Source of the DNA: a virus
Taxonomy: Duplodnaviria > Heunggongvirae > Uroviricota > Caudoviricetes
Length of the DNA stretch: 18,612 nucleotides
Reading direction: 5' to 3' (one strand)
IMG/VR virus record: IMGVR_UViG_2645727905_000004
Span: 1 to 18,612 of that record
Of the stretch, positions 1 through 17,439 are shown in pieces. Position 1 is the stretch's first letter. Each line of letters begins with the position of its first letter. The notes under the pieces are model-generated. The model worked only from the letters and a program-made list of their open reading frames with translations. It searched no databases and was not told where the DNA came from. The position numbers and the translations under genes were made by a program.

Positions 1-98
1 CAGTAGCGGAGCAGGAAGGACATCTGATGGAAATGGAAGCCACGCAAGCACCTTAAAATCACCATCATACACTAAATCAGTAAGTTGGCAGCATTACC
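1..98 (-). mobile_element. IS1-family insertion sequence, terminal segment with left inverted repeat; element continues leftward off-window
   Basis: Reverse complement of 1-98 reads GGTAATGCTGCCAACTTACTGATTTAGTGTATGATGG..., recognisable as an IS1-type left end (a variant of the canonical sequence as recalled); terminus at 98. Confidence 0.65.
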
Positions 99-743
99 CA
101 CACAGGTATCATGCTCAATAACAAAGTGCTACCTGTAACCATTTACAACATAGTACCATTCAATAAAACATTCTGGAATTTAATCAAAAACAGCCAGGAA
201 TGCCCTACAAATACAGATAACGTATTGAATGAATGCTTTAATAACCGTTGCACTCTGCAAATATGTCCTTATGGGCTAAAACAACAAAATCCATAAGGAG
301 TTTACTCACATCTGACAAAATCAATATAAACAGCCCCTCCGGAGAGGGGCTGGAGAGTGGCGCTATGTGCCATTGCATGGTGCCGGGTGCCTCCCGGTGA
401 ATTCAGTACCAGCACCTGAATCCGCGATTATCCCATATACCTACTCGCTGATTGCCCCTCCGCACAGGGGGATTCACCATGCCAGTTTCTTTTAACAAAC
501 TCCCCGCAAACCAGACAACAGTCAACCGCCTGAATTGTGAAGTATTTAAAAATTTCTCCCGCTAACTGATACCCGGCTAACAGTCTGGCGTTTTCTTTTT
601 CAGCAACGGGAAAGCAACAACCACCACACCCGCCACCAGCACACCGTCAGCCAGCACTGACATTATCCGGCTGCTGCAATGCCATTCACAAAAACAGTAA
701 GCAATCACTTTTTACCGTAACAGGTGATAATCCAGATATGTAT

Positions 744-1097
744 CTACCCCAGATGAGTAATCCGAAGTTCATCCATACCACAGGTCCTGGCTATTCTGTT
801 GTACTCCTGAACAAGAGCAAATAATTCTGAATTAGCAACCATGAACTCATCGCAAACCCTCTGTATAGCATCACTATTCAGAATAATAACGTCTCTTCCC
901 GAAAGACGATCAGGAGTACAGAACAAAACTGTCAAACGGCTGAAGGCCTTTGCTCGTGCTGCATTGACTATATCAATACGCTGCCTAAGGATGAAACACC
1001 CCGACGCCTCATCAATATTCACTCTACCCACACCATATGAATGATAAATATTTAATGCTGAAAAAACCATTAGACCGTATAACAAATATTCAATCAA
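744..1097 (-). CDS. hypothetical protein, first ORF downstream of the phage tRNAs; start uncertain (TTG at 1097 or ATG at 1070), possibly a frameshifted fragment
   Basis: 117-codon ORF in the late-operon orientation; no strong SD at either candidate start; the adjacent frame continues into a short hydrophobic tail (577-663). Confidence 0.3.
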   Translation of the reverse strand: MIEYLLYGLMVFSALNIYHSYGVGRVNIDEASGCFILRQRIDIVNAARAKAFSRLTVLFCTPDRLSGRDVIILNSDAIQRVCDEFMVANSELFALVQEYNRIARTCGMDELRITHLG

Positions 1098-1207
1098 TAC
1101 TTAACAGAACTTTTATTTTTGACAAACATATAATATTTTCAACAATATCCTGAGCCAGGTATATTTCAGTATAAGGCTCTGCCGGAAGGAATCTGGAAGA
1201 ATGAATA

Positions 1208-1284
1208 TGGCGCGCTGTACTGGATTCGAACCAGTGACCGATTGCTTAGAAGGCAATTGCTCTGTCCGGCTGAGCTAACAACGC
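1208..1284 (-). tRNA. tRNA-Arg (anticodon UCU), phage-encoded
   Basis: Reverse complement GCGTTGTTAGCTCAGCCGGACAGAGCAATTGCCTTCTAAGCAATCGGTCACTGGTTCGAATCCAGTACAGCGCGCCA folds as a cloverleaf with anticodon loop CTTCTAA, T-arm GGTTCGAATCC and CCA end. Confidence 0.85.
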
Positions 1285-1385
1285 TGAATACCGATAATGG
1301 ACCGCCATCGGGGACCCGCCCCCCGCACCAACAACCCTGTTATCGTGTCGTCTGCTCTTCCTGATAAGCTAATGGCGGTTTGTGA

Positions 1386-1461
1386 TGGTGGCCCTTGCTG
1401 GATTTGAACCAGCGACCTGGCGATTATGAGTCGCTCGCTCTCACCACTGAGCTAAAGGGCC
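1386..1461 (-). tRNA. tRNA with CAU anticodon, ileX/ileZ-like (tRNA-Ile2 with lysidine; Met not excluded by anticodon alone)
   Basis: Reverse complement GGCCCTTTAGCTCAGTGGTGAGAGCGAGCGACTCATAATCGCCAGGTCGCTGGTTCAAATCCAGCAAGGGCCACCA; 76 nt cloverleaf, anticodon loop CTCATAA, closely resembles E. coli ileX as recalled; one A-C mismatch at the top of the anticodon stem. Confidence 0.8.
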
Positions 1462-1500
1462 GGGAGCAGAATAATAACGGTCCGTAATTAATTTCGCAAT

Positions 1501-1528
1501 AAAAAACCCGCTCAGCGGCGGGTTGTAG
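1501..1528 (-). terminator. rho-independent terminator downstream of the Q-dependent late promoter (tR-prime-like)
   Basis: Minus strand reads ACAACCCGCCGCTGAGCGGGTTTTTT: GC-rich hairpin followed by a T6 run. Confidence 0.6.
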
Positions 1529-1571
1529 AAACTCTTCTAACGTCAGGCATAAAACGCCCATCGTTATGACG

Positions 1572-1599
1572 AATTTACCACAGATTCCGGAAAAATCAA
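1572..1599 (-). promoter_or_regulatory. candidate late promoter (PR-prime-like) with probable Q-utilisation site immediately downstream of the Q gene
   Basis: Minus strand TTGATT-16 nt-TAAATT directly after the Q stop codon, followed about 40-60 nt later by the hairpin terminator at 1501-1528; arrangement parallels lambda PR-prime/qut/tR-prime. Confidence 0.45.
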
Positions 1600-1604
1600 C
1601 CTTG

Positions 1605-2426
1605 TTACCTAGTTACCTTTTTTAACTGCCGCTCAGCCCATGCTTCTTCAATATCAAACCGGGTCACCAGCGCATCATAAAATTTCTTAACTGTTTTTTC
1701 CCATGACGCGCGTGTTATCTGGTTTGTCACCTCGCATATAGCATTAAATGCCTCCGTTGATGGTAGTCTTTCATAGCCACGACCACCACAACGCTGGCAG
1801 TCTCTGATAACAGGCATACCACGTTTTACCGACTCTTCACGATGAATGGCGACACCACGCCCACGGCAATCCTTACAGGCGGTGGAAACCTCACCCTTTC
1901 CGCCACACTCCGGACAGGCAACTTTTACCACCTCCCTGACTTTTTTCCATTCTTCCCAGTAAGACGGATACACACCTTTCGTACACTTTGCCCATACCGG
2001 CGGCTTACCATCCGGATACTGGACCTTGTTTGTAAAAACTATGCTTTCAATAAATTTTTCCCCATAGCAACAAGGGCACTGCTTTTTACTCGCTGCGCTG
2101 CGGGCATAATCCTCAAAAGCGTACGAAGCCATAATGCGCATCACTACCGGTTTTATTTCTGCCGGAAGTTTTCTCAACGCCGCCACACGATCGCACCGAC
2201 TGAGTGCATAATCTGCCAGTAATTCTGTTGCCCGCGCCCTGTCATTCATACTGATGCCCATTTTCCCCAGGAACGCAGAAAAACCCATCTCAGCCCGATT
2301 CTGTGTCATGCCCTGCGCGGCCATCACATCAGTGATACTCAGCGCATCTTTTGACGTTGAGGCCGATGCATCGGTCAGGCCAGGGGATTTTGGGGAGTAG
2401 TATTTCGGTAAATCTTCCAGTTTCAT
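1605..2426 (-). CDS. late-gene antitermination protein Q (lambdoid Q family, zinc-finger type)
   Basis: 273 aa; several CxxC pairs (CPCC, CPECGGKG, CKDCRGRG, CQRCGGRG); sits between rusA and the late promoter/tRNAs as in Qin and Stx-type prophages. Confidence 0.75.
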   Translation of the reverse strand: MKLEDLPKYYSPKSPGLTDASASTSKDALSITDVMAAQGMTQNRAEMGFSAFLGKMGISMNDRARATELLADYALSRCDRVAALRKLPAEIKPVVMRIMASYAFEDYARSAASKKQCPCCYGEKFIESIVFTNKVQYPDGKPPVWAKCTKGVYPSYWEEWKKVREVVKVACPECGGKGEVSTACKDCRGRGVAIHREESVKRGMPVIRDCQRCGGRGYERLPSTEAFNAICEVTNQITRASWEKTVKKFYDALVTRFDIEEAWAERQLKKVTR

Positions 2427-2440
2427 TTTTTGACCTGCTC

Positions 2441-2797
2441 TTAATGCATTATGGGGTAAATCTTCACCCCCAGACGTCCACCAGATACTGGCTGACCACG
2501 AACGATATTGATTTCATCAAACTGCTCATCGTCCATTAACACTCCCGCATGCGTCAGCGCATCCAGCGGTGCTTTCAGAATGTTGTCCAGGTCGCGACGA
2601 CGCTTATCCGGTGGCTCTGCAATCACCTTTATCGCCAGCCTTCCGGACAGGCTTAATTTCAGCCGCTGCTGGCGAACAATAAACGCCACAGCCCGGCGAT
2701 AACGCTTTCCCTCCTCCGAGATAAAATATGTGCTGCCACGGCGTCGCCAGTAAGTGTTCACCGTCGGCGGGTAAGGTAAAACCAAATCTATGAGCAT
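2441..2797 (-). CDS. rusA: crossover junction endodeoxyribonuclease RusA (Holliday junction resolvase)
   Basis: 118 aa; motifs YRRRG...PPDKRRRDLDNILKAPLDALTHAGV...GGRL match the RusA family; located in the nin region upstream of Q. Confidence 0.85.
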   Translation of the reverse strand: MLIDLVLPYPPTVNTYWRRRGSTYFISEEGKRYRRAVAFIVRQQRLKLSLSGRLAIKVIAEPPDKRRRDLDNILKAPLDALTHAGVLMDDEQFDEINIVRGQPVSGGRLGVKIYPIMH

Positions 2798-2809
2798 CAG
2801 TCACCTCTT

Positions 2810-3859
2810 TTACCCAAGCACGCCAGTTGCAAAGGCGTGATCAAGAAAACGAAAAATTAAATCAACCTGAGAACCATGCTTTTCTTCGAACGCCAGCGGA
2901 TCCGCATGAAGCTCGTTGTGATGCTCCCGACACAGCGGTAGCGTGAAAATATCGTGAGATTTTGTCCCCATTCCGCCCTGACCATGACCAATCAGGTGAT
3001 GGGGATCGTCGGCTGGCTTACCACAACACGCACACGGCTGTGTCTTCACCCAGCGTGTGTATTTCTCGTTAACCCAGCGGCGACGTTTAGGTCGTTTCAT
3101 GAAAGATTCCGGAGGCTCAGGATCAACGGCAATGCTGACCACCGTCTTTTCCTGTGGTGGGTTCTGTTGCTGGTGGGCGTGAGGCAGCGGCGCAAGATTT
3201 TTTGTGCGCTGTTTCAGTATGCTGATGGCGGTCTGCTCTCCCGGTACGATGTCGCTTTCGCGGTACAAGGGGCGGATTTTTTCCGCACGTAACCCCAGAG
3301 AACGACGTAATACTGCCTCCGGAAGCGCGTCCGCCACCTGATTGCAGACCGCCCACCAGGATAATTCAGCCAGAGATAATTCACGCTCCTGCGTACCGCT
3401 TATTGCGTGACCGATGACGTCAATCATCCATGCTGACAGGTTTTGATGAGCAAGTTGCTCGAGTGATTCGGATGTCTGGTCACGCAGCTGGTTGTCGCAG
3501 TGCCAGCACAACACCATTGCGCCGGTACCATAACGGTGAATGACGGTTTCGCTGTGATGATAATCGCCGTGTGGCCACTGGCAGGATTTAATATGGCGCA
3601 ACAGCCAGTCAGACAATGCACCAGCACCACCAGCAGCACGAATCACCCGTGCGTTACTGAAAAACGGCAGCAATGTTTTGTCTTCCACTAGCGGCTGGTG
3701 AACGGCAGGAACAACCCCGGACGGCAGATTACGCATGCTTTTCGGTTCCGGCTCCACCAGTACCCGGGTATTGTGGAATACCGGCATGGATTCACGGCCC
3801 GGCTTAACGATCACCAGCCCGAGTTCCGGTACCAGAACAGGTCGAAGTAATACCCGCAC
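2810..3859 (-). CDS. ydfU: YdfU-like prophage protein (DUF968) with C-terminal HNH-like zinc-finger motif
   Basis: 349 aa; C-terminus CACCGKPADDPHHLIGHGQGGMGTKSHDIFTLPLCREHHNELHADP; GTG start with GGAGG SD; synteny with the Qin quuQ-ydfU-rem-hokD block. Confidence 0.7.
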   Translation of the reverse strand: MRVLLRPVLVPELGLVIVKPGRESMPVFHNTRVLVEPEPKSMRNLPSGVVPAVHQPLVEDKTLLPFFSNARVIRAAGGAGALSDWLLRHIKSCQWPHGDYHHSETVIHRYGTGAMVLCWHCDNQLRDQTSESLEQLAHQNLSAWMIDVIGHAISGTQERELSLAELSWWAVCNQVADALPEAVLRRSLGLRAEKIRPLYRESDIVPGEQTAISILKQRTKNLAPLPHAHQQQNPPQEKTVVSIAVDPEPPESFMKRPKRRRWVNEKYTRWVKTQPCACCGKPADDPHHLIGHGQGGMGTKSHDIFTLPLCREHHNELHADPLAFEEKHGSQVDLIFRFLDHAFATGVLG

Positions 3860-3860
3860 G

Positions 3861-4139
3861 TTACCTCCAGATGCGTTGCTGGAATGTGCGGGACGGACGC
3901 GGTGGGCGCTCGGAGTAAGGAAGCCTGACGGAGATTATCCAGTGACGATAATCGAGGCTGAGGGCTTTCTTAATCTCGTATCCGTGTCTGCGGTAGCACT
4001 GAATTAGCCACTCGGCCTGTTCTTCAGTGCATGGGGGATGCTGGAACCAGTCAGATTTGAAAGTGCGGGAACGCCGCCCGTGCCTGCTGGCAAAGACGGC
4101 AGAATCATCAGAATTGTGTAATTTGGTATCGTGCGCCAT
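3861..4139 (-). CDS. small nin-region protein (position equivalent to Qin rem); function unknown
   Basis: 92 codons from the ATG at 4139; the longer ORF-track start at 4268 would run through the hok terminator hairpin, so the internal ATG is preferred; stop overlaps the ydfU-like start region. Confidence 0.45.
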   Translation of the reverse strand: MAHDTKLHNSDDSAVFASRHGRRSRTFKSDWFQHPPCTEEQAEWLIQCYRRHGYEIKKALSLDYRHWIISVRLPYSERPPRPSRTFQQRIWR

Positions 4140-4209
4140 CGGTTGTCTCTGCTGGCGCAGCAGGTGCCAGTTGTTCAGGCTGGCGTGCGAATTGTAAACC
4201 AGAACGACC

Positions 4210-4238
4210 AGAAAAAACAAAACCCGCCGAAGCGGGTT
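4210..4238 (-). terminator. rho-independent terminator at the 3' end of the hok transcript
   Basis: Minus strand AACCCGCTTCGGCGGGTT hairpin followed by TTGTTTTTT, about 70 nt downstream of the hok stop. Confidence 0.65.
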
Positions 4239-4306
4239 AAGTGCGGGTGCGTTGAGGATGCCTGACACATCAGCGGTGGCGAGGGATTTCTCCCCCGCCG
4301 GGTCTC

Positions 4307-4462
4307 TTACTCCTCAGGTTCGTAAGCTGTGAAGACAGCGACCTCCGTCTGGCCGGTTCGGATTCGTACCTCGCAGAGGTCTTTCCTCGTTACCAGTGCC
4401 GTCACTATGACGGTTAAACAGATGACGATCAGGGCGATTAACATCGCCTTTTGCTGCTTCAT
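4307..4462 (-). CDS. hokD: Hok-family type I toxin (HokD/RelF-type small membrane peptide)
   Basis: 51 aa MKQQKAMLIALIVICLTVIVTALVTRKDLCEVRIRTGQTEVAVFTAYEPEE, matching HokD as recalled; SD AAGGAG upstream; an in-frame upstream ATG at 4519 gives the 70-aa ORF in the track. Confidence 0.85.
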   Translation of the reverse strand: MKQQKAMLIALIVICLTVIVTALVTRKDLCEVRIRTGQTEVAVFTAYEPEE

Positions 4463-4753
4463 AGCCTGCTTCTCCTTGCCTTTCGGCACGTAAGAGGCTA
4501 ACCTACATTTGTGAGACATAGATTGGGCCTCAGATTAATGTTAAGCGTCGTGCAGGACGCGTAATGTTAACTGGGGCTTTTCTCTATCTGCCTTTTGGTG
4601 TTCATGCCTGAGACAGATAGCCTCAAGCACCCGCAGTCATTCTACTTAACTAAGATTTCCCCGCAAACCGTTTTTATCCCCAGCTGCAAATCGAATACAC
4701 AACAAGTGCTGCCGCCATTGCAATTCCTGTCGTTGTGAATGCCTCCGGCCAGG

Positions 4754-5176
4754 TCATCGTAAAACATCCTCCGCGCTTATCAGCCCATTCCGCTCCAGAT
4801 ACCCCATCGCCATATCCGGTAATTTGCAATCTGGTTTCGCTTTTTTCAACTGACTTACCAATTGTTTAACCAGCATTGCCAACTCTTCCTCATGTGAAAG
4901 TGATGCCGGTTGCGCAGCGTACAGGGGTTTTGGCGCAATGGCTGAGTGTTTTGCGTATGCCGCAACAGATTCAGCATTGAACAAAACCATATTGTGAGCA
5001 CAGGACCATGCAACTGGCATTGCTTCAAGTGAGGCAAGCGCAATACGGGCAAGCGCAAGATCCATTTCAATGGCAACTCTTGAAGTCTTAAACACGGTCT
5101 GTCGCGCAGCAAATTTCATGGATTTCACACTTTCATTAGCATGAGCAATCAATTGCTCTCTGGTAAATTTCGTCAT
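4754..5176 (-). CDS. hypothetical protein (141 aa from ATG at 5176), no recognised family
   Basis: ORF in early-right orientation; the internal ATG is preferred over the track start at 5227 because the latter has no SD; moderately biased composition. Confidence 0.45.
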   Translation of the reverse strand: MTKFTREQLIAHANESVKSMKFAARQTVFKTSRVAIEMDLALARIALASLEAMPVAWSCAHNMVLFNAESVAAYAKHSAIAPKPLYAAQPASLSHEEELAMLVKQLVSQLKKAKPDCKLPDMAMGYLERNGLISAEDVLR

Positions 5177-5209
5177 ATTTTTCTCATCCAGTCCTGTCGC
5201 TATGCCTGC

Positions 5210-5252
5210 GCAACCATTACCCCACAATTACATCACAGGGGGTAATGGTTGC
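5210..5252. repeat. perfect 14-bp inverted repeat (GCAACCATTACCCC / GGGGTAATGGTTGC) with 15-nt AT-rich loop in an intergenic gap
   Basis: Read directly: arms at 5210-5223 and 5239-5252; no flanking T-run on either strand, so not a classical intrinsic terminator. Confidence 0.8.
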
Positions 5253-5347
5253 AATTCAGTGGCCACCGCGAGATTCACATCATTCACAATAAATCATAAA
5301 AATACACGCAATCACAGACCATAATAAAAGAACTGTTTCGGCCACAA

Positions 5348-5698
5348 TCACAAGACCTTCCCACATTTCTTTTTCCCACACCTCCTGAAACCAGAGAATC
5401 GGCATATCGCCCCCCTCTGAAAAACAACCACATGCCCTAGCTTCTCCGCCAGAGCCAGTTCCGCTTTAGCGCCTGCTGACCGTTGCCAGTCTTTCAGCAT
5501 ATAAATCGCATCCACGCTACGTATCATTGCCATGCAGATATCCATGTAGTGCGGCTGTGTCAGCCCGTCCGGAAGTACTGCCGGGTTCAAGACTGTATGC
5601 CCTTCCCGTTTCAGTTCCTCTTCCGCCTTGTGGAACGCCTCACGGTTGAAATTTTTATACCCGGTCATTGGACCGGCAATATAAACTCTCACCCTCAC
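5348..5698 (-). CDS. DUF4406-like protein (nucleoside 2-deoxyribosyltransferase-like fold), prophage accessory
   Basis: 116 aa; N-terminal VYIAGPMTG motif typical of this family; GTG start overlapping the upstream stop (GTGA) with GGAG SD. Confidence 0.55.
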   Translation of the reverse strand: MRVRVYIAGPMTGYKNFNREAFHKAEEELKREGHTVLNPAVLPDGLTQPHYMDICMAMIRSVDAIYMLKDWQRSAGAKAELALAEKLGHVVVFQRGAICRFSGFRRCGKKKCGKVL

Positions 5699-5976
5699 TC
5701 CTGAACTCTCCTGTCGAAATAAACGTAGTTATTCACTGTGCGCAACGGCATTCCAAATTTTCTGGCGATTTCTCTCCTGGGTACGCCACGCTGATGCAGC
5801 TGTCGCGCCAGTTCAATATCACTCTGTGGATATTTTGTTGACTGGTGATAATCACCCCGTAACATCAGACTGACACCCAGTTCCCGCGCTTTCGTTCTGA
5901 CAGCATCACCTGTACGACCGGTCAGCCTCCCAATGCTTTCGACCGTCATCGTTCCCGCACACTGACGGAGTATCAT
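5695..5976 (-). CDS. small helix-turn-helix DNA-binding protein, unknown role
   Basis: 93 aa from the ATG at 5976 (GAGG SD 8 nt upstream); two HTH-like segments (ESIGRLTGRTGDAVRTKAREL and RREIARKFGMPLRTVNNYV); stop overlaps the next start. Confidence 0.5.
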   Translation of the reverse strand: MILRQCAGTMTVESIGRLTGRTGDAVRTKARELGVSLMLRGDYHQSTKYPQSDIELARQLHQRGVPRREIARKFGMPLRTVNNYVYFDRRVQE

Positions 5977-6008
5977 GATTTCAGCCTCGTACCACTTCTT
6001 CCAGCCAC

Positions 6009-6770
6009 TCACCGCTGCAGCTCTCCGGTCGCGGTAATATCCCGAAGAATATCCCGGTGCTTGTTCAGCTCCCGCAGCGCGGCGCAGACTCGTTCCCACT
6101 TCTGGACATGACTTTTCGCCCGACGCAGTTCGAGGTTTGCCATATGCAGCGATGGTAAAATCAGGTCATCCGCTCGCGTTTCAGTAAACGATGGCAGCGA
6201 CTGCACAATGCCCGCTACAGTTTCTGTTTTAATTTCTTCCTGTGTTGCGGCTTCCCGGACTGGTAACGCAACACCTGCTGGCTGAGGAAAGGTCTTACCA
6301 TCATTTTCCGTTACCGATGCTGCTTTCGGCTCTGCTGGTAAATTACCGCCCGGCATGCAGTAACGAAATTTACCGCTCTGATTAACGCGTGCCAGCCGCC
6401 CCGTTGCGGTTACCACCGCCAGCGTGGAAGCAACCTTGCGAGTACTGATGCCGAACTTACCCGCCAGTTCCTCACACGTTTTAGCCCCATCCTGACCGAT
6501 AAACTCAATCATCATGTCTGCGGTAACTTTTTGTTCGACCTCCCCGGTCAGCATATCCTGTGCTTCAGATTTTACTGGCCGCTCTTCGGTTACCAGGGAT
6601 TCACTTTCGCCAGCCAGAAACCAGGTGTGACCAGTTTTATCAACGACGCCATTTCTTTTGAGTTCCCACAGCTCGTTGAGAACCTCTTCACGACTGATAT
6701 CAAGTCGCGCGGCCAGTTCTACCGATGTGGCTTTTCCCATTGCTTTCAGTGCGTCAAAAACGGTTTCCAT
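6009..6770 (-). CDS. prophage protein with two winged-helix-like repeats (DUF1627-like)
   Basis: 253 aa; internal repeat [29 protein letters not shown] and [29 protein letters not shown]; GGAGG SD 9 nt upstream of the ATG. Confidence 0.55.
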
Positions 6771-6791
6771 TAAAATTTCCTCCGGACAAAA

Positions 6792-7538
6792 TTACTTCAC
6801 AACCCTCAGGTGTCTGACATTCGAACGCCAGCTCTCCCAGTTAAAATTCACCCAGCGACCACCGTTCATGACCATGCGGTCCATCACACGCTCGCCAAGA
6901 AGCGTACTCATCGCTACGTGGTTCAGGTTCGTCAGCATTCCGACACTACGCATCGAAGCCGTTCTGCGGTCGACTATCTGGTTCAGTGTGACCTGCTCGT
7001 TGCGCGTATCCCGCTGCATTCCGATTTCATCCAGGACAAGCAGGTCAACATCACACAACCCCTGTAAAAATTTTTCGCCTGAGTTTTTGTTGTCGTAGCT
7101 GTTGTGTAACGCCAGCATCACATCAGCCACCGTTATCACAATCACGCTGCGACCTTTCGCCAGAAGATGATTGCCAATGGCGGCTGCAAGGTGGTTCTTT
7201 CCGGTACCCGGCTTACCGCTGAACACAAAATTCGTGCACCCGGTCATCAGTTCGTCAGCGATGGATTTTGCCTGGCTCAGCGCGTGTTTTTGCCCGTCGT
7301 TCTGCACCTGATAATTCGCAAACGAGCATTTGCTGTGCAGAGGCTGGATGCCCGAACGATTCAGGATTTTTTCCACCCGCAACTGGCGATTCTGGCGGTT
7401 GATCTCCTCGCTACGTTTTCGCCCTTCTGCCAGTTGCCACTCGCGCCACTCGTCCACTGTCCGGTACGGCGCGATTACATGCTGCGGGGTCAGCTTACGG
7501 ATACGCTCAAGAACACCACCTGTCGCGATATTTTTCAT
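6792..7538 (-). CDS. DnaC-like replicative helicase loader (phage P-analogue, AAA+ ATPase)
   Basis: 248 aa; Walker A GKPGTGKNHLAAAIG and Walker B LLVLDEIG; immediately downstream of the O-like initiator. Confidence 0.85.
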   Translation of the reverse strand: MKNIATGGVLERIRKLTPQHVIAPYRTVDEWREWQLAEGRKRSEEINRQNRQLRVEKILNRSGIQPLHSKCSFANYQVQNDGQKHALSQAKSIADELMTGCTNFVFSGKPGTGKNHLAAAIGNHLLAKGRSVIVITVADVMLALHNSYDNKNSGEKFLQGLCDVDLLVLDEIGMQRDTRNEQVTLNQIVDRRTASMRSVGMLTNLNHVAMSTLLGERVMDRMVMNGGRWVNFNWESWRSNVRHLRVVK

Positions 7539-7544
7539 GGCCCG

Positions 7545-8510
7545 TTACCCCCTGAACCCCGGCGGAATTTCGGTATCCGGCTCAGAAATATGATTCACAC
7601 AACGCTGTACAGACGAACGCCCCAGGCGGATAACCAGTTCATCCCATTTTTCGCGAAGCTTTGACGGACTCATGATATTTTTTACCCAGAATGGATCCCG
7701 CTGCACCCGACCAAACATTTCACAAATTTGTCTGTGAGTTCTGCCATCCAGCATCCGCATTGTGCGCACGTCGTTGGCCCATGCGGTCCAGTTGGGTTCT
7801 TTCGGTCGCGAAATCTCGCCATCATCGCTGGCGGCCTGCTCGTAAAGACTCACGATTCGCCCCCAGATCCACTGCGCACACGCCAAATCCTCCTGGTTGC
7901 CCCACTGGCGTTTTTTTGCACTGAACACAACCGCGTCAGGGTGTCGGGTTAAAAAATCCTGTTCAACCGTCTGCGGGTCCGGTTGCGAAGCTTCCGGACG
8001 AGAAGTGTTTTTATTCTCTGTAGTAATCTCTGTTGTATTCTCTGTAAGATCATCAGGCCATTTTGACCCGATGACATTGAGTCGTTTTGAACCAATGGAA
8101 CGTGCCATTTTGGCCTCTTCCATCGTGTCATTTTGACCTGATGGAGCAGCGCATTTTGATCTGATGGATTCGCTCACTTTGCCACCATCTAAAAGCTCGC
8201 TCTCGTAATTAATCGTGTAAAAATTAGTCATATCACGCTTTGATTTATTGAGCTTTTCGCAACGTAAAAGCCCCAGCGTTTTCAGACTTGCAAATGCGCG
8301 TTTTAACGTTGACTCTGACCAGAACGGGAACTGCTCCAGCCATTGTTCTGTTGTGTTATAAATCCAGCGAACACCATCACATTCCATGCCGGAACCGGTA
8401 TCTCTCAACCAGTAATGCAACTGCTGCAACACGATGGCTTCGTTCAGACCAATTTTCATCGCCAGCTGCGTGTTTATAACCAGCGGACGTTCAGCAAAAA
8501 GGAGCTTCAT
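7545..8510 (-). CDS. replication initiation protein (lambda O-like) with iterons inside the gene
   Basis: ATG at 8510 (the track uses TTG at 8534); N-terminal winged-helix-like region; the iteron array at 8057-8167 lies within the coding sequence and encodes an SIGSK-type repeat linker. Confidence 0.7.
   Translation of the reverse strand: MKLLFAERPLVINTQLAMKIGLNEAIVLQQLHYWLRDTGSGMECDGVRWIYNTTEQWLEQFPFWSESTLKRAFASLKTLGLLRCEKLNKSKRDMTNFYTINYESELLDGGKVSESIRSKCAAPSGQNDTMEEAKMARSIGSKRLNVIGSKWPDDLTENTTEITTENKNTSRPEASQPDPQTVEQDFLTRHPDAVVFSAKKRQWGNQEDLACAQWIWGRIVSLYEQAASDDGEISRPKEPNWTAWANDVRTMRMLDGRTHRQICEMFGRVQRDPFWVKNIMSPSKLREKWDELVIRLGRSSVQRCVNHISEPDTEIPPGFRG
8057..8250. repeat. candidate phage replication origin: five iterons at about 23-bp spacing plus adjacent AT-rich region
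   Basis: Copies of CATTTTGAYCYGATGG at 8057-8073, 8128-8144, 8151-8167 and degenerate copies near 8084-8098 and 8105-8115; AT-rich block 8190-8250. Confidence 0.6.
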
Positions 8511-8530
8511 CCCCCCCCCAGAACACGTTA

Positions 8531-8956
8531 TCAATGCGCCACCACGGCATTTCCCGCCGGACCACCACGATTCATCTGATCGAACAACACGATCGCTGCC
8601 GCAACAAACTCATCGATATCTTTCACCAGGCGCTCCCGTCGCTCGACAAGCTCCCGGTGATATTCCGAACTGTGGCTGCGCATTCGGGCCACCAGCGGAG
8701 GCGGCATTGCTTTTTCGATCGCCGGTAACAACGCCTGAATTTTTTTAACCGCATCAGGGGTGTTTTTTTCTACCCAGCGGAAAATTTTCTGGGTATTACG
8801 AGACAGGGCTTCCGGATGGCTGTCGTCGTACAATTCAGGAAACGTCATACCCAACTCAAAATAAGACTGGGTTATTTCAGCTGCCGGAACTTTTTCACCG
8901 TCCGAATGAGCCCAGGCATTCATCGCCATGCGGATGTGTTCATGCTTGATTTTCAT
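8531..8956 (-). CDS. YdaT-like (CII-like) prophage regulatory protein
   Basis: 141 aa beginning MKIKHEH, characteristic of the YdaT family as recalled; AGGAG SD 8 nt upstream; directly downstream of the Cro-like gene. Confidence 0.6.
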   Translation of the reverse strand: MKIKHEHIRMAMNAWAHSDGEKVPAAEITQSYFELGMTFPELYDDSHPEALSRNTQKIFRWVEKNTPDAVKKIQALLPAIEKAMPPPLVARMRSHSSEYHRELVERRERLVKDIDEFVAAAIVLFDQMNRGGPAGNAVVAH

Positions 8957-9221
8957 GAATCAAGCTCCTAGAAAGTGGTTGTGTTAACGTTTTGGTATCT
9001 TCCAGCTCGGGCCAAATATTCATCCAATCAAAAGGCCTTAGTTGCTGACGTGTAACTTCACCATTACTGGCTCGCTCAATAAGGACACATAACGATGCCC
9101 CTAACACTTGACCTTTACTCAATGCCTTTCTTAGATAACCGATGCTGGTACCACACTCGCATGCAAACATACGCTGTTCATCTGACGAAAGAGAATTGAG
9201 AAATATTCTTAATTCTTCCAT
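8940..9221 (-). CDS. YdaS-like Cro-type HTH regulator (first gene of the early-right operon)
   Basis: 93 aa; motif ERASNGEVTRQQLRP resembles the YdaS/Cro family; AAGGAG SD 5 nt upstream; divergent from the repressor gene. Confidence 0.6.
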   Translation of the reverse strand: MEELRIFLNSLSSDEQRMFACECGTSIGYLRKALSKGQVLGASLCVLIERASNGEVTRQQLRPFDWMNIWPELEDTKTLTQPLSRSLIHENQA

Positions 9222-9246
9222 AGCTACTCCTTAGTAAACACAGCAA

Positions 9247-9316
9247 AGAATACCCACAGGTAAACAAAAGTCAATACCCACAGGTTGTTTACCTTGCGGT
9301 AATCGCATCTATTATT
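9247..9316. promoter_or_regulatory. divergent promoter/operator region between the cro-like and repressor genes
   Basis: Operator-like TACCCACAGGTA at 9251-9262 and TACCCACAGGTT at 9275-9286; minus-strand promoter TTGACT-17-TATTCT overlapping them; plus-strand TTTACC-16-TATTAT ending 6 nt before the repressor ATG (leaderless-type). Confidence 0.6.
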
Positions 9317-9321
9317 TACCT

Positions 9322-9741
9322 ATGGACAAATATGAATTTAGACGACAGCAACTCATCAAAATTCGTGATGAGAAATGCGATGGTAAAGCGGTTAACGTGG
9401 CCAGAAAGATCGGGCGCGAGCCTTCTTATGTATCAAGAATGTTGTACCCAGAGGGGAAAAAGGGAAAAAAACGGATCGCTGATGATATGGTGGAGATTAT
9501 CGAAGAGTCCTTTGGGTTACCCCGGGGATGGATGGATGGTATCGTTTCATCATCAACGAACACAGCCTCCAGTTATGAAACAAGGGTTCTAACGCCACGA
9601 CAACGTATTTTTTTAGATCTCTTAGACGAACTGCCAGAAAGTGAAGCGGATAACTTATTAAAAACTCTTGAAGAGAAAAAACAGTATTACAATATGATCT
9701 ACGAAGAAATCCGTAAAAAGAAAGCACAAAACGCATCATAG
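9322..9741 (+). CDS. prophage repressor, XRE-family HTH, DicA-like
   Basis: 139 aa; HTH KAVNVARKIGREPSYVSRML; C-terminal segment LTPRQRIFLDLLDELPESEADNLL resembles the DicA C-terminal region as recalled; flanked by operator palindromes. Confidence 0.7.
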   Translation: MDKYEFRRQQLIKIRDEKCDGKAVNVARKIGREPSYVSRMLYPEGKKGKKRIADDMVEIIEESFGLPRGWMDGIVSSSTNTASSYETRVLTPRQRIFLDLLDELPESEADNLLKTLEEKKQYYNMIYEEIRKKKAQNAS

Positions 9742-9784
9742 CTCACCAAACAACTAGTCACCAGTTAAGACACCGCAAAAAAGT

Positions 9785-9821
9785 TACCCATGGGTATTTA
9801 CTTTTTAAATACCTATGGGTA
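9785..9821. promoter_or_regulatory. paired operators for the dicB-operon (early-left) promoter
   Basis: Perfect palindrome TACCCATGGGTA (9785-9796) and near-palindrome TACCTATGGGTA (9810-9821), same consensus as the sites at 9251-9286. Confidence 0.6.
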
Positions 9822-10007
9822 TCCTTCTTTTCATACCAACCCACCCCGCCCCACAGAACGCAGGGAAATACTTCGAGTTACCCGGCAGTGGTCAGGGGTT
9901 AAGTAGCCAGCCCGAGGCGTAAGAACATGACGGCAGGGTTCAACTTTAATAACTATGCAGCAGGTTTTTGTTCCGCTACCCCGGCGTTAAGGGGGAATGA
10001 GGTCAGC

Positions 10008-10163
10008 ATGGATACTATCGATCTTGGCAACAACGAATCTCTGGTGTACGGCGTGTTTCCAAACCAGGACGGCACGTTCACCGCAATGACGTATACCAAA
10101 AGCAAAACGTTTAAAACCGAATCTGGAGCGCGTCGCTGGCTGGAAAGAGATTCAGGTGGGTGA
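10008..10163 (+). CDS. ydfA: YdfA-like small protein (dicB operon)
   Basis: 51 aa MDTIDLGNNESLVYGVFPNQDGTFTAMTYTKSKTFKTESGARRWLERDSGG, matching Qin YdfA as recalled; an in-frame upstream ATG at 9927 would give 78 aa. Confidence 0.65.
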   Translation: MDTIDLGNNESLVYGVFPNQDGTFTAMTYTKSKTFKTESGARRWLERDSGG

Positions 10164-10164
10164 T

Positions 10165-10293
10165 ATGGATTTCGACACAATCATGGAAAAGGCTTACGAA
10201 GAATACTTCGAAGGCCTTGCCGAAGGCGAAGAAGCCCTCAGCTTCAGCGAATTTAAACAGGCGCTTTCCAGCCCGGCAAAATCTAACGGCTGA
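10165..10293 (+). CDS. ydfB: YdfB-like small acidic protein (dicB operon)
   Basis: 42 aa MDFDTIMEKAYEEYFEGLAEGEEALSFSEFKQALSSPAKSNG translated by hand; too short for the ORF track; starts 2 nt after the ydfA stop. Confidence 0.6.
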   Translation: MDFDTIMEKAYEEYFEGLAEGEEALSFSEFKQALSSPAKSNG

Positions 10294-10322
10294 TAAGCGA
10301 AGCAGCACCGCGAGGAATCAGT

Positions 10323-10541
10323 ATGCAGAAACGAGAACCCGTCATCATCGCGCCAGACTATACCGATGATGAACTTTATGAGTGGATGCACCAGAAAATT
10401 AAGGCTGCGCAGGACCTGAAATGGGCCAATGAAGCCAGGGCTAAGCAGGCTGAAAATCTGTCCGCTCTGGAGCAGGATATCACCAATCTGGAAAAAGCAG
10501 CGGCATTAAGCATTGCCAGAATGATTACATACCCACGTTAA
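10323..10541 (+). CDS. ydfC: YdfC-like protein (dicB operon)
   Basis: 72 aa; GAGGAA SD 5 nt upstream; position and length match Qin ydfC. Confidence 0.7.
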   Translation: MQKREPVIIAPDYTDDELYEWMHQKIKAAQDLKWANEARAKQAENLSALEQDITNLEKAAALSIARMITYPR

Positions 10542-10563
10542 TAGCTAACCAACGAGGCTAATA

Positions 10564-10971
10564 ATGGAATTTAAAGATTTACCAAAAGAAATCCAGACAA
10601 TTGCTGCAACGACTCTCGGTGATAGTCTGGTGAAAATTGACCCGGCATACACCAAAAAAGAAACCATCGATAATATGGTTCGTAATGTGCGCAATGCTTT
10701 TTCTGGGCTATATGGTTCTGATAATCAAAAGCAGGAAAGCGATGTTAATAAACGGGTAATTTCTGTTTGCGTGAATGGCCATGTTCTTTCATCAATCAAA
10801 ACAGAAACGGCGACAGTCTTCGATTGCCTTTGCATTGTACAGAGCCTTGTTGATGCCCTGTTTCGTTCAGTGAATTTAGAAAATGATGCAAATCTGCGAG
10901 GGCGCACAATAGCACATCCATATGCACATACTTTAGGCTCTGTGGATATCAAAGATCCCACAAATCTTTAA
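10564..10971 (+). CDS. hypothetical protein, inserted gene between ydfC and dicF
   Basis: 135 aa; GAGG SD 6 nt upstream; AT-richer than flanking operon genes; no family recognised; absent from the K-12 Qin arrangement as recalled. Confidence 0.55.
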   Translation: MEFKDLPKEIQTIAATTLGDSLVKIDPAYTKKETIDNMVRNVRNAFSGLYGSDNQKQESDVNKRVISVCVNGHVLSSIKTETATVFDCLCIVQSLVDALFRSVNLENDANLRGRTIAHPYAHTLGSVDIKDPTNL

Positions 10972-11182
10972 TGAAATAGTTAACGCGAATTGTACTTGCT
11001 CTTTCAGTTGCTTTCAGAATACGCGTTGAAACTGCTGGCGGTAATTTGGTATTCCATTTATTAAAATCATGCCCGGGAAAGTACTCTTCGAAAATACTTT
11101 TAACTGCAGACTCGCCTATTGAAATGCTGCTTACCATGCGATTTTGATAAAGGCATTTAGCAATAAGAGTTGATTTTAACAT
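10949..11182 (-). CDS. hypothetical small protein convergent with, and overlapping, the 135-aa ORF
   Basis: 77 aa; AGGAGG SD 4 nt upstream of the ATG at 11182; 3' end overlaps the 3' end of the plus-strand ORF by 23 bp. Confidence 0.45.
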   Translation of the reverse strand: MLKSTLIAKCLYQNRMVSSISIGESAVKSIFEEYFPGHDFNKWNTKLPPAVSTRILKATERASTIRVNYFIKDLWDL

Positions 11183-11505
11183 TCACCCTCCTGAGGGTTG
11201 GTAATTAAGGAGTTCTCCATGGGTGAAGTGGAGTGCGTGCGCCGGACACGGGTGAACATCCGGCACTGACAGTTTACTGAAAGGATATTTCTCTGAAAAG
11301 TCAGAGCATAACGCGAAAGCGCACGGCGAGGTTGCTGGTTCATAGATAGCCTGTCGTTAAATTTTCGTCGACCGTGCGCTTCCGGTTGTGGCACTCCGCG
11401 AAATGGCGCGGCGGTAAGTATGGCGGGGTTATTCCTTCCCCGTTGAGGACACCGGGTTGTCAGGTTGACCATACGCCTGAGTGACAACTCCGCTACAACA
11501 ACCCA

Positions 11506-11565
11506 TGTTGATTACCTTTTGGCGGGTATTCGTTTTGTTTTTCCCGTGATACCCGCCCCTTTTAA
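11506..11565 (+). ncRNA. dicF: DicF-like small RNA (variant) ending in an intrinsic terminator
   Basis: Sequence TTGATTACCTTTTGGCGGGTATTCGTTTTGTTTTTCCCGTGATACCCGCCCCTTTT resembles DicF as recalled (GGCGG..GTTTT..CCGTGA..CCGCCC + U-run); sits between ydfC and dicB as in Qin; boundaries approximate. Confidence 0.5.
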
Positions 11566-11740
11566 AGTGAATTTTGTGATGCGGTGAATGCGGCTCAGCG
11601 CACGCGGAACAGTTAAAACAAGCGGTCTTTTACTTGCGTAACAGACATCAACTAACAATCCGGCGTTAATGGTTTACTGGTTAACGTCACCTGGAGGCAC
11701 CAGGCGCCGCATCACAAAATTCATTGTTGAGGACGCGATA

Positions 11741-11929
11741 ATGGAAACGTTATTACCAAACGTTAATACGTCTGAAGGTTGTTTTGAAATTGGTGTCACT
11801 ATCAGTAACCCAGTATTTACTGAAGATGCCATTAACAAGAGAAAACAAGAACGGGAGCTATTAAATAAAATATGCATTGTTTCAATGCTGGCCCGTTTAC
11901 GCCTGATGCAAAAAGGATGCTGGCAATGA
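11741..11929 (+). CDS. dicB: cell division inhibitor DicB
   Basis: 62 aa METLLPNVNTSEGCFEIGVTISNPVFTEDAINKRKQERELLNKICIVSMLARLRLMQKGCWQ, near-identical to K-12 DicB as recalled; the longer track ORF starts upstream in frame. Confidence 0.85.
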   Translation: METLLPNVNTSEGCFEIGVTISNPVFTEDAINKRKQERELLNKICIVSMLARLRLMQKGCWQ

Positions 11930-12129
11930 ATACTACATTTGCACTTGTTCTGACGGTTTTTCTTGTTTCCGGTGAACCGGTTGACATGGTTACTGGCGTA
12001 TACGGCTCAATGAAAGAATGCATGGTTGCCGCAGCGGAACAGAAAATTCCCGGTAACTGTTATCCGGTCGATAAAGTTATTCACATGGATAATAACGAAA
12101 TCCCGGCAGGACTTAAAACAGCACCGTAA
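11926..12129 (+). CDS. ydfD: YdfD-like small membrane/lysis protein
   Basis: 67 aa MNTTFALVLTVFLVSGEPVD...; start overlaps the dicB stop (ATGA); hydrophobic N-terminus. Confidence 0.65.
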   Translation: MNTTFALVLTVFLVSGEPVDMVTGVYGSMKECMVAAAEQKIPGNCYPVDKVIHMDNNEIPAGLKTAP

Positions 12130-12209
12130 TTAATATCCGGTTTCATTTTTATATGCCAGCAATGGCAGGGATTTGTTCACCCTTAAATCTGTAATGAGGT
12201 TAAAACAAA

Positions 12210-14681: not shown

Positions 14682-14739
14682 TGTTCAACCCTAATTGCCG
14701 CTAACCGTATATAGTTAGCGGCGGTTATGAGATATAGCT

Positions 14740-14943
14740 ATGAGCAACTTATTTTTAACCGAAGATGAATTGCTAATATTAACGGGCTGCAAATATGCAA
14801 GCCACCAGCGAAAATGGTTAACGGAAAACGGGCTTCCGTTCTATACCAATCGTAGTGGCAAACCGATTGTCAGCCGGGATCTATTTACCTGCAATAAAAC
14901 TTTACCACCACGCGAGGTAGAGCCGAATTTTGGTGCAATCTAA
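14740..14943 (+). CDS. excisionase-like small DNA-binding protein
   Basis: 67 aa directly upstream of int with overlapping stop/start (TAATG). Confidence 0.55.
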   Translation: MSNLFLTEDELLILTGCKYASHQRKWLTENGLPFYTNRSGKPIVSRDLFTCNKTLPPREVEPNFGAI

Positions 14944-15968
14944 TGGGAAGACGAAGGAAAAATCCTGAACACGAAAAACTACCTCCAAATGTATACCCAA
15001 ATAAATATAGTTATGTATGGAAACCAACATCCAGAGAATCTGTCACACTAACCGCCATCAAGGATGGTTTAGCTGCTTTATGGAAAAAGTATGAGGAAAC
15101 TGTAAATAATCGCGATCGTGCAATGACATTCGGTCGCTTGTGGGAAAAATTCCTCGCCAGCGCCTATTACAGTGACCTCAGTCCAAGAACACAAAAAGAT
15201 TATCTGCAACATCAAAAAAAGTTGCTTGCCGTATTCGGTAAGGTGCCGGCAGATTCCATAAAACCAGAACACATCCGTCGATACATGGACAAGAGAGGGG
15301 AACAGAGTAAAACGCAAGCCAACCATGAAAAAAGCAGTATGTCCCGCGTTTACAGTTGGGGGTATGAGCGAGGGTACGTGAAGGCTAACCCATGTGCAGG
15401 TGTAAGTAAATTCAAGGCCAAAAACCGCGAACGATATGTAACCGACAAAGAATACCAGGCAGTATTAAGCGTTGCACCTCTTCCTGTTTTTATCGCAATG
15501 GAAATTGCCTATCTGTGTGCAGCGAGGGTTTCCGATGTGTTATCGCTGAAATGGGAGCAGATTGGAAACGACGGAATCTTTATCCAGCAAGGGAAAACAG
15601 GAAAAAAACAGATAAAAGCATGGAGTCCACGATTACAGGCGGCGATCGAAAAAGCAAAACAGTTACCAACATCCGCCTATGTAATCAGTAATCAATACGG
15701 CAACCGATATATGTACAAAGGCTTTAACGAAATGTGGGTAGAAGCAAGAAATCGCGCAGGCAAAATTTCAGGTATTTTAACCGACTTCACCTTTCATGAT
15801 CTGAAGGCGAAAGGAATTTCAGACTATGAAGGAAGCAGTCGGGATAAGCAACTTTTCTCTGGTCACAAAACCGAGGGGCAAGTGCTAATCTATGACAGGA
15901 AGGTTAAAGTTTCACCGACACTTGATGTCCCGTTACCTGAAAATATTCCAAGAAAATATTCCAAGTAA
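14943..15968 (+). CDS. phage integrase, tyrosine recombinase
   Basis: 341 aa; catalytic-region motifs AARVSDV, FHDLKAKG, HKTEGQVLIYDR; adjacent to a tRNA gene. Confidence 0.9.
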   Translation: MGRRRKNPEHEKLPPNVYPNKYSYVWKPTSRESVTLTAIKDGLAALWKKYEETVNNRDRAMTFGRLWEKFLASAYYSDLSPRTQKDYLQHQKKLLAVFGKVPADSIKPEHIRRYMDKRGEQSKTQANHEKSSMSRVYSWGYERGYVKANPCAGVSKFKAKNRERYVTDKEYQAVLSVAPLPVFIAMEIAYLCAARVSDVLSLKWEQIGNDGIFIQQGKTGKKQIKAWSPRLQAAIEKAKQLPTSAYVISNQYGNRYMYKGFNEMWVEARNRAGKISGILTDFTFHDLKAKGISDYEGSSRDKQLFSGHKTEGQVLIYDRKVKVSPTLDVPLPENIPRKYSK

Positions 15969-16020
15969 TTCCAAGTGTGATTTTTGTCACTGACTTAATG
16001 ATGTATAAGTGATTGAATTT

Positions 16021-16110
16021 TGGCGGAGAGAGGGGGATTTGAACCCCCGGTGGAGTTGCCCCCACTCCGGTTTTCGAGACCGGTCCGTTCAGCCGCTCCG
16101 GCATCTCTCC
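16021..16110 (-). tRNA. serU: tRNA-Ser (anticodon CGA), serU; prophage attachment site
   Basis: Reverse complement GGAGAGATGCCGGAGCGGCTGAACGGACCGGTCTCGAAAACCGGAGTGGGGGCAACTCCACCGGGGGTTCAAATCCCCCTCTCTCCGCCA, 90 nt with long variable arm. Confidence 0.9.
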
Positions 16111-16203
16111 GTTCAGATGGTTGCCATGATGCCAGGAAATTTGGCATTTTAACAGTCCCTGTCCGTGCAATTTTGTTCAAGTGACGAGTTTGCGAGCAAA
16201 ACG

Positions 16204-17001: not shown

Positions 17002-17101
17002 TTAACAACTTTGCAGATTAATTAACCAATTGAAATGGCTTATGAAATTTAGTGTTGACAGACAAGGTACCGCTAAGTAATATGCGCCCCGTTCTCACGA
17101 T

Positions 17102-17177
17102 TCCTCTGTAGTTCAGTCGGTAGAACGGCGGACTGTTAATCCGTATGTCACTGGTTCGAGTCCAGTCAGAGGAGCCA
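17102..17177 (+). tRNA. asnT: tRNA-Asn (anticodon GUU), host
   Basis: TCCTCTGTAGTTCAGTCGGTAGAACGGCGGACTGTTAATCCGTATGTCACTGGTTCGAGTCCAGTCAGAGGAGCCA; which asn paralogue it is follows from K-12 synteny with mtfA and serU. Confidence 0.9.
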
Positions 17178-17265
17178 AATTCTAAAGATTCGCTTTTTTA
17201 GCGCAATGTCACTGCTCTTAGTTGAGCATTGCTTTTTAACGGATAGCGGGTTTTTGACATCTTAA

Positions 17266-17298
17266 GCGCCCTCAATCTTCATGGTTGAGGGCGTTTTG
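17266..17298 (+). terminator. rho-independent terminator downstream of tRNA-Asn
   Basis: GCGCCCTCAA-tcttcatgg-TTGAGGGCG hairpin followed by TTTTG. Confidence 0.65.
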
Positions 17299-17439
17299 CT
17301 ATGAACGCCATCACCATTTTCCCCTTGATTATAAAACTTGAGTAATTCAGTAGTCTCCCCTCTTGCAACTCACACCCAAAACTGCTTAACGAAAAGTTAT
17401 TAATTTTCAATCATATTGCTATCAGGATCTACTTTTTTT

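Follow-up and report, generated by a model that had tools for sequence, protein, structure and literature searches.

What the short genes between the replication module and hok of a lambdoid prophage do, and whether they work together, is the question raised by the stretch of DNA analyzed here, positions 1 to 18,612 of IMG/VR record IMGVR_UViG_2645727905_000004 (Caudoviricetes); this whole stretch of 18,612 nucleotides is referred to as the window. The window belongs to a Rac/Qin-type lambdoid prophage of E. coli, and all genes of the region in question lie on its minus strand. Four of them were described in an initial annotation made from the sequence alone, and they are identified here as ydaW, which encodes a DUF1627 protein (6009-6770, 253 aa), a gene for a hypothetical helix-turn-helix (HTH) protein (5695-5976, 93 aa), a DUF4406 gene (5348-5698, 116 aa, GTG start) and a gene for a hypothetical protein (4754-5176, 140 aa plus stop). 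We suggest that the region is a nin-like delayed-early accessory stretch, a mosaic of exchangeable genes and not a multi-gene system, in which the DUF4406 protein would serve as a nucleotide N-glycosidase. We hold this combined reading to be probable, though well short of certain.

A mosaic region between the replication module and hok

The full arrangement (at least 80% of the query covered) was found in 36 of 5,426 complete E. coli genomes, and partial matches were found in 4,972 of them. A comparison of gene neighborhoods across related loci, which had been suggested in the initial annotation, was carried out on 80 viral contigs that encode close relatives of the DUF4406 protein and onto each of which all window proteins were mapped, and it revealed a variable mosaic. 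In these 80 loci, replication modules of several types are followed by an optional ydaW, then by a gene for either DUF977/LygF or the HTH protein, and then by DUF4406; beyond DUF4406 there is a highly variable run of small genes, after which hok and a DUF968 gene are found. YdaW, the HTH gene, the modules of Eaa-type proteins and the genes after DUF4406 vary independently of one another. The gene preceding DUF4406 always ends 4 nt inside it (a DUF977 gene in 67 loci and the HTH gene in 13), and the downstream gene in related phages always begins at +292/293 from the DUF4406 start, overlapping the DUF4406 stop. The mosaic region has its recombination joints at these stop/start overlaps, and the overlap between the HTH gene and DUF4406, which had already been noticed, amounts to 4 nt (GTGA) in the DNA of the window. 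Because the full arrangement is rare and each gene recurs with other neighbors, the four genes are a mosaic and not one inherited unit, and their earlier description as a cluster was not upheld.

The four ORFs are genuine genes and not chance ORFs, because DUF1627 and DUF4406 have Pfam matches and each of the four genes has hundreds of homologues. In an E. coli chromosome that is 99.9% identical to the window over positions 4300-7600, the Prokaryotic Genome Annotation Pipeline (PGAP) annotates four genes at the same coordinates. They are flanked upstream by a gene for a DnaC/IstB-like loader (6792-7538) and an O-like gene (7545-8534) and downstream by hok (4307-4462) and the sok RNA (4457-4632; Rfam, 120 bits), past which a DUF968 gene and an antiterminator gene lie further downstream. 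The same orientation, the tight packing and the location between the replication module and hok, all pointed out earlier, are in agreement with the coordinates and with PGAP. The accessory genes would be read through from the replication genes in a rightward operon, joined at their stop/start overlaps. A promoter and terminator scan of 4200-7000 left the coding strand empty save for a terminator after hok, and sok was the sole Rfam match within the region.

That lambdoid phages have mosaic nin-like regions is textbook knowledge, RefSeq already contains the sequences under the same family names, and nothing in the region departs from what is known of lambdoid phages. The region resembles the lambda nin region (ren, ninB-ninI) in that it occupies the same site between the replication genes and Q, and in that both consist of short overlapping genes of a non-essential-looking kind. 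However, the four genes have no sequence relationship to Ren or Nin proteins, and the prophage holds DUF1627, HTH, DUF4406, an Eaa-type gene, hok/sok and DUF968 instead. In line with the earlier description of the four genes as poorly characterized, none of them can be placed in a characterized nin or ren family: there were zero matches to Nin families in Pfam, and the hhalign comparison with lambda Ren was not significant.

The only recurrent linkage in the region is that of DUF977/LygF or the HTH gene with DUF4406. Among the complete E. coli genomes, the HTH gene is present in 770, DUF4406 in 1,178 (about 22%) and the contiguous pair in 564, those of O157:H7 among them. A suggestive hint of functional coupling comes from the P1-like phage D6 (MF356679.1; L166, 2360-3285). 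Its orf89 encodes a 203-aa DUF4406 protein with a C-terminal extension that resembles the C-terminal module (C-module) of the 140-aa protein (36% over 53 residues, E 6e-6), and orf90, which follows orf89 and overlaps it by 4 nt, encodes a 73% homologue of the window HTH protein.

It could be argued from these observations that the HTH protein, DUF4406 and the C-module of the 140-aa protein constitute one unit, for example a targeted nucleotide-cleaving module for counter-defense or host takeover, whose enzyme would be governed or guided by the DNA-binding partner, with the C-module serving as an adaptor. This agrees with the 4-nt overlap between a DNA-binding-type gene and DUF4406 in 80 of 80 related loci, with the frequency of the contiguous pair in E. 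coli and with the occurrence in D6 of both a C-module-like fusion and an HTH homologue; as gene order and fusion state differ in D6, this is not simply the same block of DNA. However, the upstream partner swaps between two unrelated proteins, DUF977 and the HTH protein, and LygF/DUF977 is present without DUF4406 in phage Rac. No DUF4406 lies within 2.5 kb of the distant homologues of the HTH protein in Serratia, Vibrio and Mu-like phages. Across many bacterial phyla (80 loci), DUF4406 stands alone as a protein of 95-115 aa, with neighbors such as methylases, RusA, DnaB, lambda P, DUF968 and exonucleases, and no constant partner of it was found outside E. coli in these loci from many bacterial groups. 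Moreover, the 4-nt overlap is the general joint type of the region, and the C-module is joined to many unrelated N-terminal parts. Both such a unit and this division of labor within it therefore appear rather unlikely to us, and we prefer to regard the region as a mosaic of exchangeable genes.

In its layout the same pair resembles type II toxin-antitoxin (TA) operons, as a small HTH gene is followed, across an overlapping stop/start, by the gene of an enzyme of about 100 aa, and the nucleoside 2-deoxyribosyltransferase (NDT) fold, which DUF4406 is predicted to adopt (see below), is related to NAD-cleaving folds. The HTH protein might accordingly be an antitoxin and DUF4406 a nucleotide- or NAD-depleting toxin of a prophage TA or abortive-infection pair. 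However, no PADLOC defense model rose above noise for either protein, and in many genomes DUF4406 occurs without an HTH neighbor, which would not be tolerable for an unneutralized toxin. The gene order is reversed in D6, and the pair lies inside a lytic early operon, not under lysogenic expression signals. We consider this explanation hardly credible. Membership in a known defense or TA system was likewise rejected, as the PADLOC matches were noise only and obligate pairing with an antitoxin was not seen, DUF4406 being mostly without an HTH neighbor in other taxa.

The DUF4406 domain and its putative chemistry

The DUF4406 protein, which was originally recognized by its YIAGPMTG motif, matches Pfam PF14359 with 127.1 bits (cut-off 22) and an E-value of 3.5e-37, residues 4-93 covering positions 2-91 of the 91-position profile, and it belongs to PHROG 355; the family assignment made earlier was thus confirmed. 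Pfam, the structure model, Foldseek and the invariant columns delimit a core of residues 1-96 (5410-5698, minus strand). It is followed by an atypical C-terminal tail of about 20 residues (...RGAICRFSGFRRCGKKKCGKVL; 5348-5409, minus strand), which was delimited by junction alignment and model confidence. Most DUF4406 homologues are 96-101 aa long, and the window copy reaches 116 aa by means of this tail, which most homologues lack and which is seen only together with the downstream 140-aa gene. In the AlphaFold2 (AF2) model, the core has a predicted local distance difference test (pLDDT) score of 85-94 and the order beta-alpha-beta-alpha-beta-alpha-beta, and residues 97-116 score below 50, so that the tail is predicted to be disordered. 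A Foldseek search of the PDB with this model gave as its top matches 2a0k (T. brucei NDT; E 2.7e-5, TMq 0.64), 6evs and 8pqt, followed by DNPH1, MilB and BcmB, and the probability was 1.00 for all of these matches. The NDT-like fold that had been proposed for DUF4406 is thus supported by its Pfam clan relatives, the AF2 model and Foldseek, and the protein is predicted to be a minimal NDT/DNPH1-fold domain. It was rejected as a canonical NDT, since its score of 15 bits with Nuc_deoxyrib_tr (PF05014) is under the curated cut-off of 28.8. No solved relatives were found by sequence, a profile search returning only marginal NDT and DUF1937 matches, and a literature search on DUF4406 yielded incidental mentions only, with no characterization paper among them.

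Y6, the GPM motif, N18, R19, D53, S74, G76 and E80 do not vary among 20 DUF4406 homologues, the most distant of which is 52% identical. A weak (E about 1) but colinear profile alignment to the T. brucei NDT places Y6, D53 and E80 on its Tyr, Asp and Glu, and in the same alignment the residue opposite S74 is the Asp of the NDT motif DxGTxxE. Counterparts of the second phosphate-binding elements of DNPH1 could not be located in DUF4406. The Tyr/Asp(Asn)/Glu triad is a hallmark of the superfamily, and its Tyr and Glu are needed for the activity of DmtZ, a phage NDT-family enzyme that is a dAMP hydrolase/transferase (PMC12884076, NAR 2026). The hydrolases characterized so far act on (deoxy)nucleoside monophosphates ((d)NMPs) and are without the Asp/Asn that holds the 5'-OH in transferases (PMC12884076). 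Because the triad is conserved in DUF4406 and Ser74 aligns, if weakly, with the transferase Asp, we infer from these rules that DUF4406 is most likely an active N-glycosidase, and that it acts on nucleoside 5'-monophosphates. A nucleotide-directed activity had been called conceivable in the initial annotation, and the conserved catalytic residues would make it more than conceivable.

DUF4406 is predicted to have the same Rossmann-like fold as DNPH1/Rcl, MilB/BcmB and DmtZ and to have the Tyr/Asp/Glu triad in common with them, and, going by the weak profile alignment, it may also resemble them in carrying a small uncharged residue, Ser74, where transferases hold the 5'-OH-binding Asp. It differs from these enzymes in forming a separate Pfam family (PF14359), in being about a third shorter and, in the case of the window copy, in bearing an aberrant tail that is predicted to be disordered. 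Genes for a dUTPase, PurZ or modified bases are not associated with it.

DUF4406 would probably be dimeric. In the proposed mechanism, a covalent ribosyl-enzyme would arise when Glu80, aided by Tyr6 and Asp53, attacks C1' of a (deoxy)ribonucleotide. Water would then free (deoxy)ribose-5-phosphate and the base, which would amount to a DNPH1/MilB/DmtZ-like cleavage of nucleoside 5'-monophosphates. Its gene stands second in a two-gene cassette, after that for DUF977/LygF or the double-HTH protein, and the biological role of the DUF4406 protein might be to reshape or sanitize the nucleotide pool early in lytic growth.

Several points weigh against our reading of the region as a mosaic that includes an N-glycosidase. 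The recurrent linkage of the HTH gene or DUF977 with DUF4406 means that some of the parts may work together, and the fusion of DUF4406 to a C-module next to an HTH homologue in D6 sits uneasily with independent genes. Co-transcription from an early promoter is deduced only from the orientation, the spacing and the absence of predicted promoters and terminators. The residue mapping leans on the weak profile alignment to the T. brucei NDT and on fold matches at 15-24% identity, and the N-glycosidase role, being argued from conserved residues, is not proven. With about 95 residues, compared with 113-160 in the matched NDT and DNPH1 structures, DUF4406 may also miss C-terminal active-site elements and hence bind rather than cleave. 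This shortness, together with target-normalized TM-scores of only about 0.5, would suit a non-catalytic sponge or sensor that binds nucleotides and retains the NDT pocket, and the sequestration of nucleotide signals by phage proteins is a known strategy. However, the invariance of Glu80, Tyr6 and Asp53 in the aligned family is the pattern expected of catalysis, and the equivalent residues are needed for activity in the phage enzyme DmtZ. We give the sponge or sensor a small chance and favor the putative N-glycosidase.

DUF4406 is common: about a fifth of the complete E. coli genomes have it, as do temperate phages from many phyla, and it carries what appears to be an N-glycosidase signature. 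For a phage relative in the NDT superfamily, remodeling of the dNMP pool has been demonstrated (PMC12884076). DUF4406 is thus a lead by which a putative nucleotide N-glycosidase function could be assigned to a gene that is very common in phages. It is also imaginable, although quite improbable in our estimation, that DUF977 or the double-HTH protein forms with DUF4406 an unrecognized phage nucleotide-cleaving module, in which a minimal N-glycosidase, targeted or regulated by its partners, would destroy a specific (d)NMP or a nucleotide-derived immune signal early in lytic growth. If true, this nucleotide-cleaving cassette would represent a new class of counter-defense or host-takeover system, present in about a fifth of E. 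coli genomes.

YdaW, the double-HTH protein and the 140-aa protein

YdaW matches Pfam PF07789 over residues 91-245 (E 2.4e-96, 320 bits) and belongs to PHROG 630. Its gene lies directly downstream of that for the IstB/DnaC-like loader in the window, in Rac and in Stx phages, and YdaW of the Rac prophage is a member of the same Pfam family at the same site after the DnaC-like loader. Its presence or absence is independent of the downstream genes in the 80 loci, and ydaW is an optional gene that trails various replication modules. The initial annotation had read the product as a two-winged-helix protein. The gene is real, and the two winged helices derive from sub-threshold matches only: Pfam HTH families at residues 4-46 and 87-133, and weak PDB matches (E 0.017-0.3) to the winged HTH of MntR (residues 2-66), the tandem winged helices of Lhr (2-128) and a Z-alpha domain (86-128). 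A BLASTP comparison of the two halves of YdaW found zero mutual similarity, and the homologues at hand were at least 85% identical. We consider it probable, from these matches, that the N-terminal half is a tandem winged helix and that the C-terminal region is helical and conserved. YdaW would then be an optional DNA-binding-type protein behind different replication modules.

Two further identities of YdaW were considered and rejected. A weak match to PHROG 142, with no stretch passing alone, prompted a comparison with lambda Ren, in which hhalign gave a probability of 0.5% and an E-value of 0.12, and the likeness between lambda Ren and YdaW is one of position only. The best solved-structure matches for residues 2-57 and 86-128 were Z-alpha domains (poxvirus E3 and ADAR1), with E-values that were not significant. 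Compared with poxvirus E3, Leu31 of YdaW stands at the Asn position and the Pro-Pro is missing, so that the Z-DNA-binding residues are absent; only the aromatics of Z-alpha align, W35 with its Tyr and W50 with its Trp. In the second domain of YdaW there is Ala at both recognition-helix positions of Z-alpha. The sole functional hint is that plasmid-borne ydaW of K-12 blocked the retron-Sen2 toxin RcaT in an overexpression screen. A literature search found no functional study of DUF1627, DUF977 or LygF, and an NCBIfam search with the four proteins gave nothing useful.

The gene of the 93-aa protein starts with an ATG at 5976 that is preceded by a GAGG Shine-Dalgarno sequence. Its matches to HTH_23, HTH_28 and HTH_7 are just under the Pfam threshold (given as residues 89-127), the protein belongs to PHROG 323 (E 8e-25), and PDB entry 2lvs aligns to it as two HTH repeats. 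It is labeled "DNA-binding protein" in some RefSeq records. By these sequence comparisons, we regard it as a double-HTH protein of putative DNA-binding type.

The product of 4754-5176 had been reported as an unrecognized protein of 141 aa without a family. The protein has 140 aa plus the stop, and it has indeed no Pfam or NCBIfam family, but it can be recognized as a member of the Eaa/DUF551/Ea22-like mosaic group. Pfam, NCBIfam and PADLOC gave zero matches, the models Ead_Ea22 (PF13935) and DUF551 (PF04448) included. PHROGs 660, 5117, 60 and 924 each match separate parts of it. It consists of three modules: an N-terminal helical hairpin (residues 6-51), an alpha/beta middle (54-86) and a C-terminal three-helix part (95-139). 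Homologues share these modules piecemeal, with an N-module of the form MTxFTxEQL...IALASLEA, a middle module that ends in PLYAAPP and a C-module (...LPDxAMxYLxRNGLISAEDVLR; ...LPDKAMDYLKRNGLISAEDVLR) that is always at the extreme C-terminus. In a search of 1.8 billion representative proteins, 494 clusters matched the N-terminal, middle or C-terminal parts separately; among the best 150 of these 494 relatives, DUF551 was present in 21 and Ead_Ea22 in 2. One abundant relative is named "Eaa protein". The AF2 model (pLDDT 86.6, predicted TM-score 0.55) also has three modules. A fold search with it in the PDB gave no match at an E-value below 0.8, a search of BFVD returned uncharacterized phage proteins only, the best being N15 gp45 (E 2.4e-3), and no solved relatives were found by sequence.

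Ea22 is a mosaic protein of three parts (PMC10834534), and we interpret the 140-aa protein, on the strength of its shared modules, as a recognizable mosaic of the Eaa/DUF551/Ea22 type. Like the Ea22, Eaa and DUF551 proteins, it has short conserved N-terminal and linker segments around exchangeable cassettes, and only the flanking N- and C-modules are common to it and the Ead_Ea22 and DUF551 proteins. However, the 140-aa protein itself fits neither the Ead_Ea22 nor the DUF551 model, and its gene, in contrast to that of Ea22, lies in the rightward nin-like region beside hok and not in the exo-xis region. The protein would have been assembled by in-frame recombination at short conserved linkers. 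Two of its relatives illustrate how fluid gene boundaries are in the region: P0055 (143 aa) is a frameshift fusion of an Eaa-type C-module with the 27-aa membrane ORF described below, and in P0030 (223 aa) an HNH domain stands ahead of an Eaa-type protein.

Small ORFs, the junction segment and other features

The initial annotation had placed a gap of 170 bp between DUF4406 and the 140-aa gene. The interval (5177-5347) measures 171 bp and is not empty, as part of a 41-aa ORF and an inverted repeat lie in it. Likewise, all of the four genes reported are present, but with this ORF and a further one of 27 aa the count rises to six ORFs, and these two putative membrane ORFs would occupy the apparent gaps of the region. 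The interval forms part of a rare junction segment of 244 bp (5177-5420, minus strand), delimited by genome search and composition, which contains the DUF4406 tail, the 41-aa ORF and the inverted repeat. The segment is present in 36 of the 5,426 E. coli genomes, always with at least 98.4% identity and mostly in enterotoxigenic E. coli (strain E24377A, for one, has exactly the arrangement of the window), and its GC content is about 43%, compared with 50-58% in its flanks. Because the junction reads ATGC and not ATGA, DUF4406 loses its usual stop here and reads on for about 20 codons.

The 41-aa ORF (5280-5405, minus strand; MPILWFQEVWEKEMWEGLVIVAETVLLLWSVIACIFMIYCE) was identified from the ORF list and the junction comparison as a candidate single-pass membrane protein. 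Its ATG, at window position 5405, is the canonical start of the downstream gene (+293) and is preceded by GAGGGGGG. The ORF encodes a hydrophobic helix, and it overlaps with the aberrant DUF4406 tail but is read in a different frame. It bears the label "putative membrane protein" in the annotation of some depositors (194 contigs), and a tblastn search against the phage collection gave no match. It stays a candidate small membrane protein because it has no detectable homologues.

The inverted repeat is a perfect one of 14 bp (GCAACCATTACCCC / GGGGTAATGGTTGC), with arms at 5210-5223 and 5239-5252 and a 15-nt spacer (5210-5252 as a whole). It stands shortly before the 140-aa gene, it is unique in the window, and the RNA of 5177-5290 folds with -37 kcal/mol (z = -2.46). 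A typical terminator was rejected, as no T-run follows the repeat and there was no terminator call; the repeat might form a hairpin in RNA or be bound by a protein.

The 27-aa ORF (4674-4757, minus strand; MTWPEAFTTTGIAMAAALVVYSICSWG) is hydrophobic and unannotated in the window, and it was found from the DNA sequence and a comparison of alleles. It is joined to the 140-aa gene by an ATGA overlap of its own ATG with the TGA of that gene, the sok/hok RNA region follows about 40 nt further downstream, and the ORF is kept upstream of hok in many loci. Among 19 alleles, the 34 variable sites are distributed 11/6/17 over the first, second and third codon positions, replacements are conservative and a stop occurs in one allele, a substitution pattern that favors coding. 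On 79 contigs, a variant of the ORF has been given the annotation "bacteriophage protein" (27 aa). The ORF is probably a real small membrane protein, judging by this pattern, and the two small ORFs near hok, both putative membrane proteins, are easy targets for small-protein validation.

Some other features were observed elsewhere in the window. Between hok and DUF968 there is a gene for a 92-aa protein (3861-4139, minus strand), which has no Pfam family and is present with 73-100% identity in most related loci. The small RNA STnc100 (322-511, minus strand) was found on the late-gene side of the prophage with an Rfam score of 132 bits (gathering score 47). There are four tRNA genes, at 1211-1284 (minus), 1389-1461 (minus), 16024-16110 (minus) and 17102-17174 (plus). 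Two of the four are prophage genes on the downstream side of the antiterminator gene, and another, which adjoins the integrase gene (14943-15968), is a possible marker of the attachment site.

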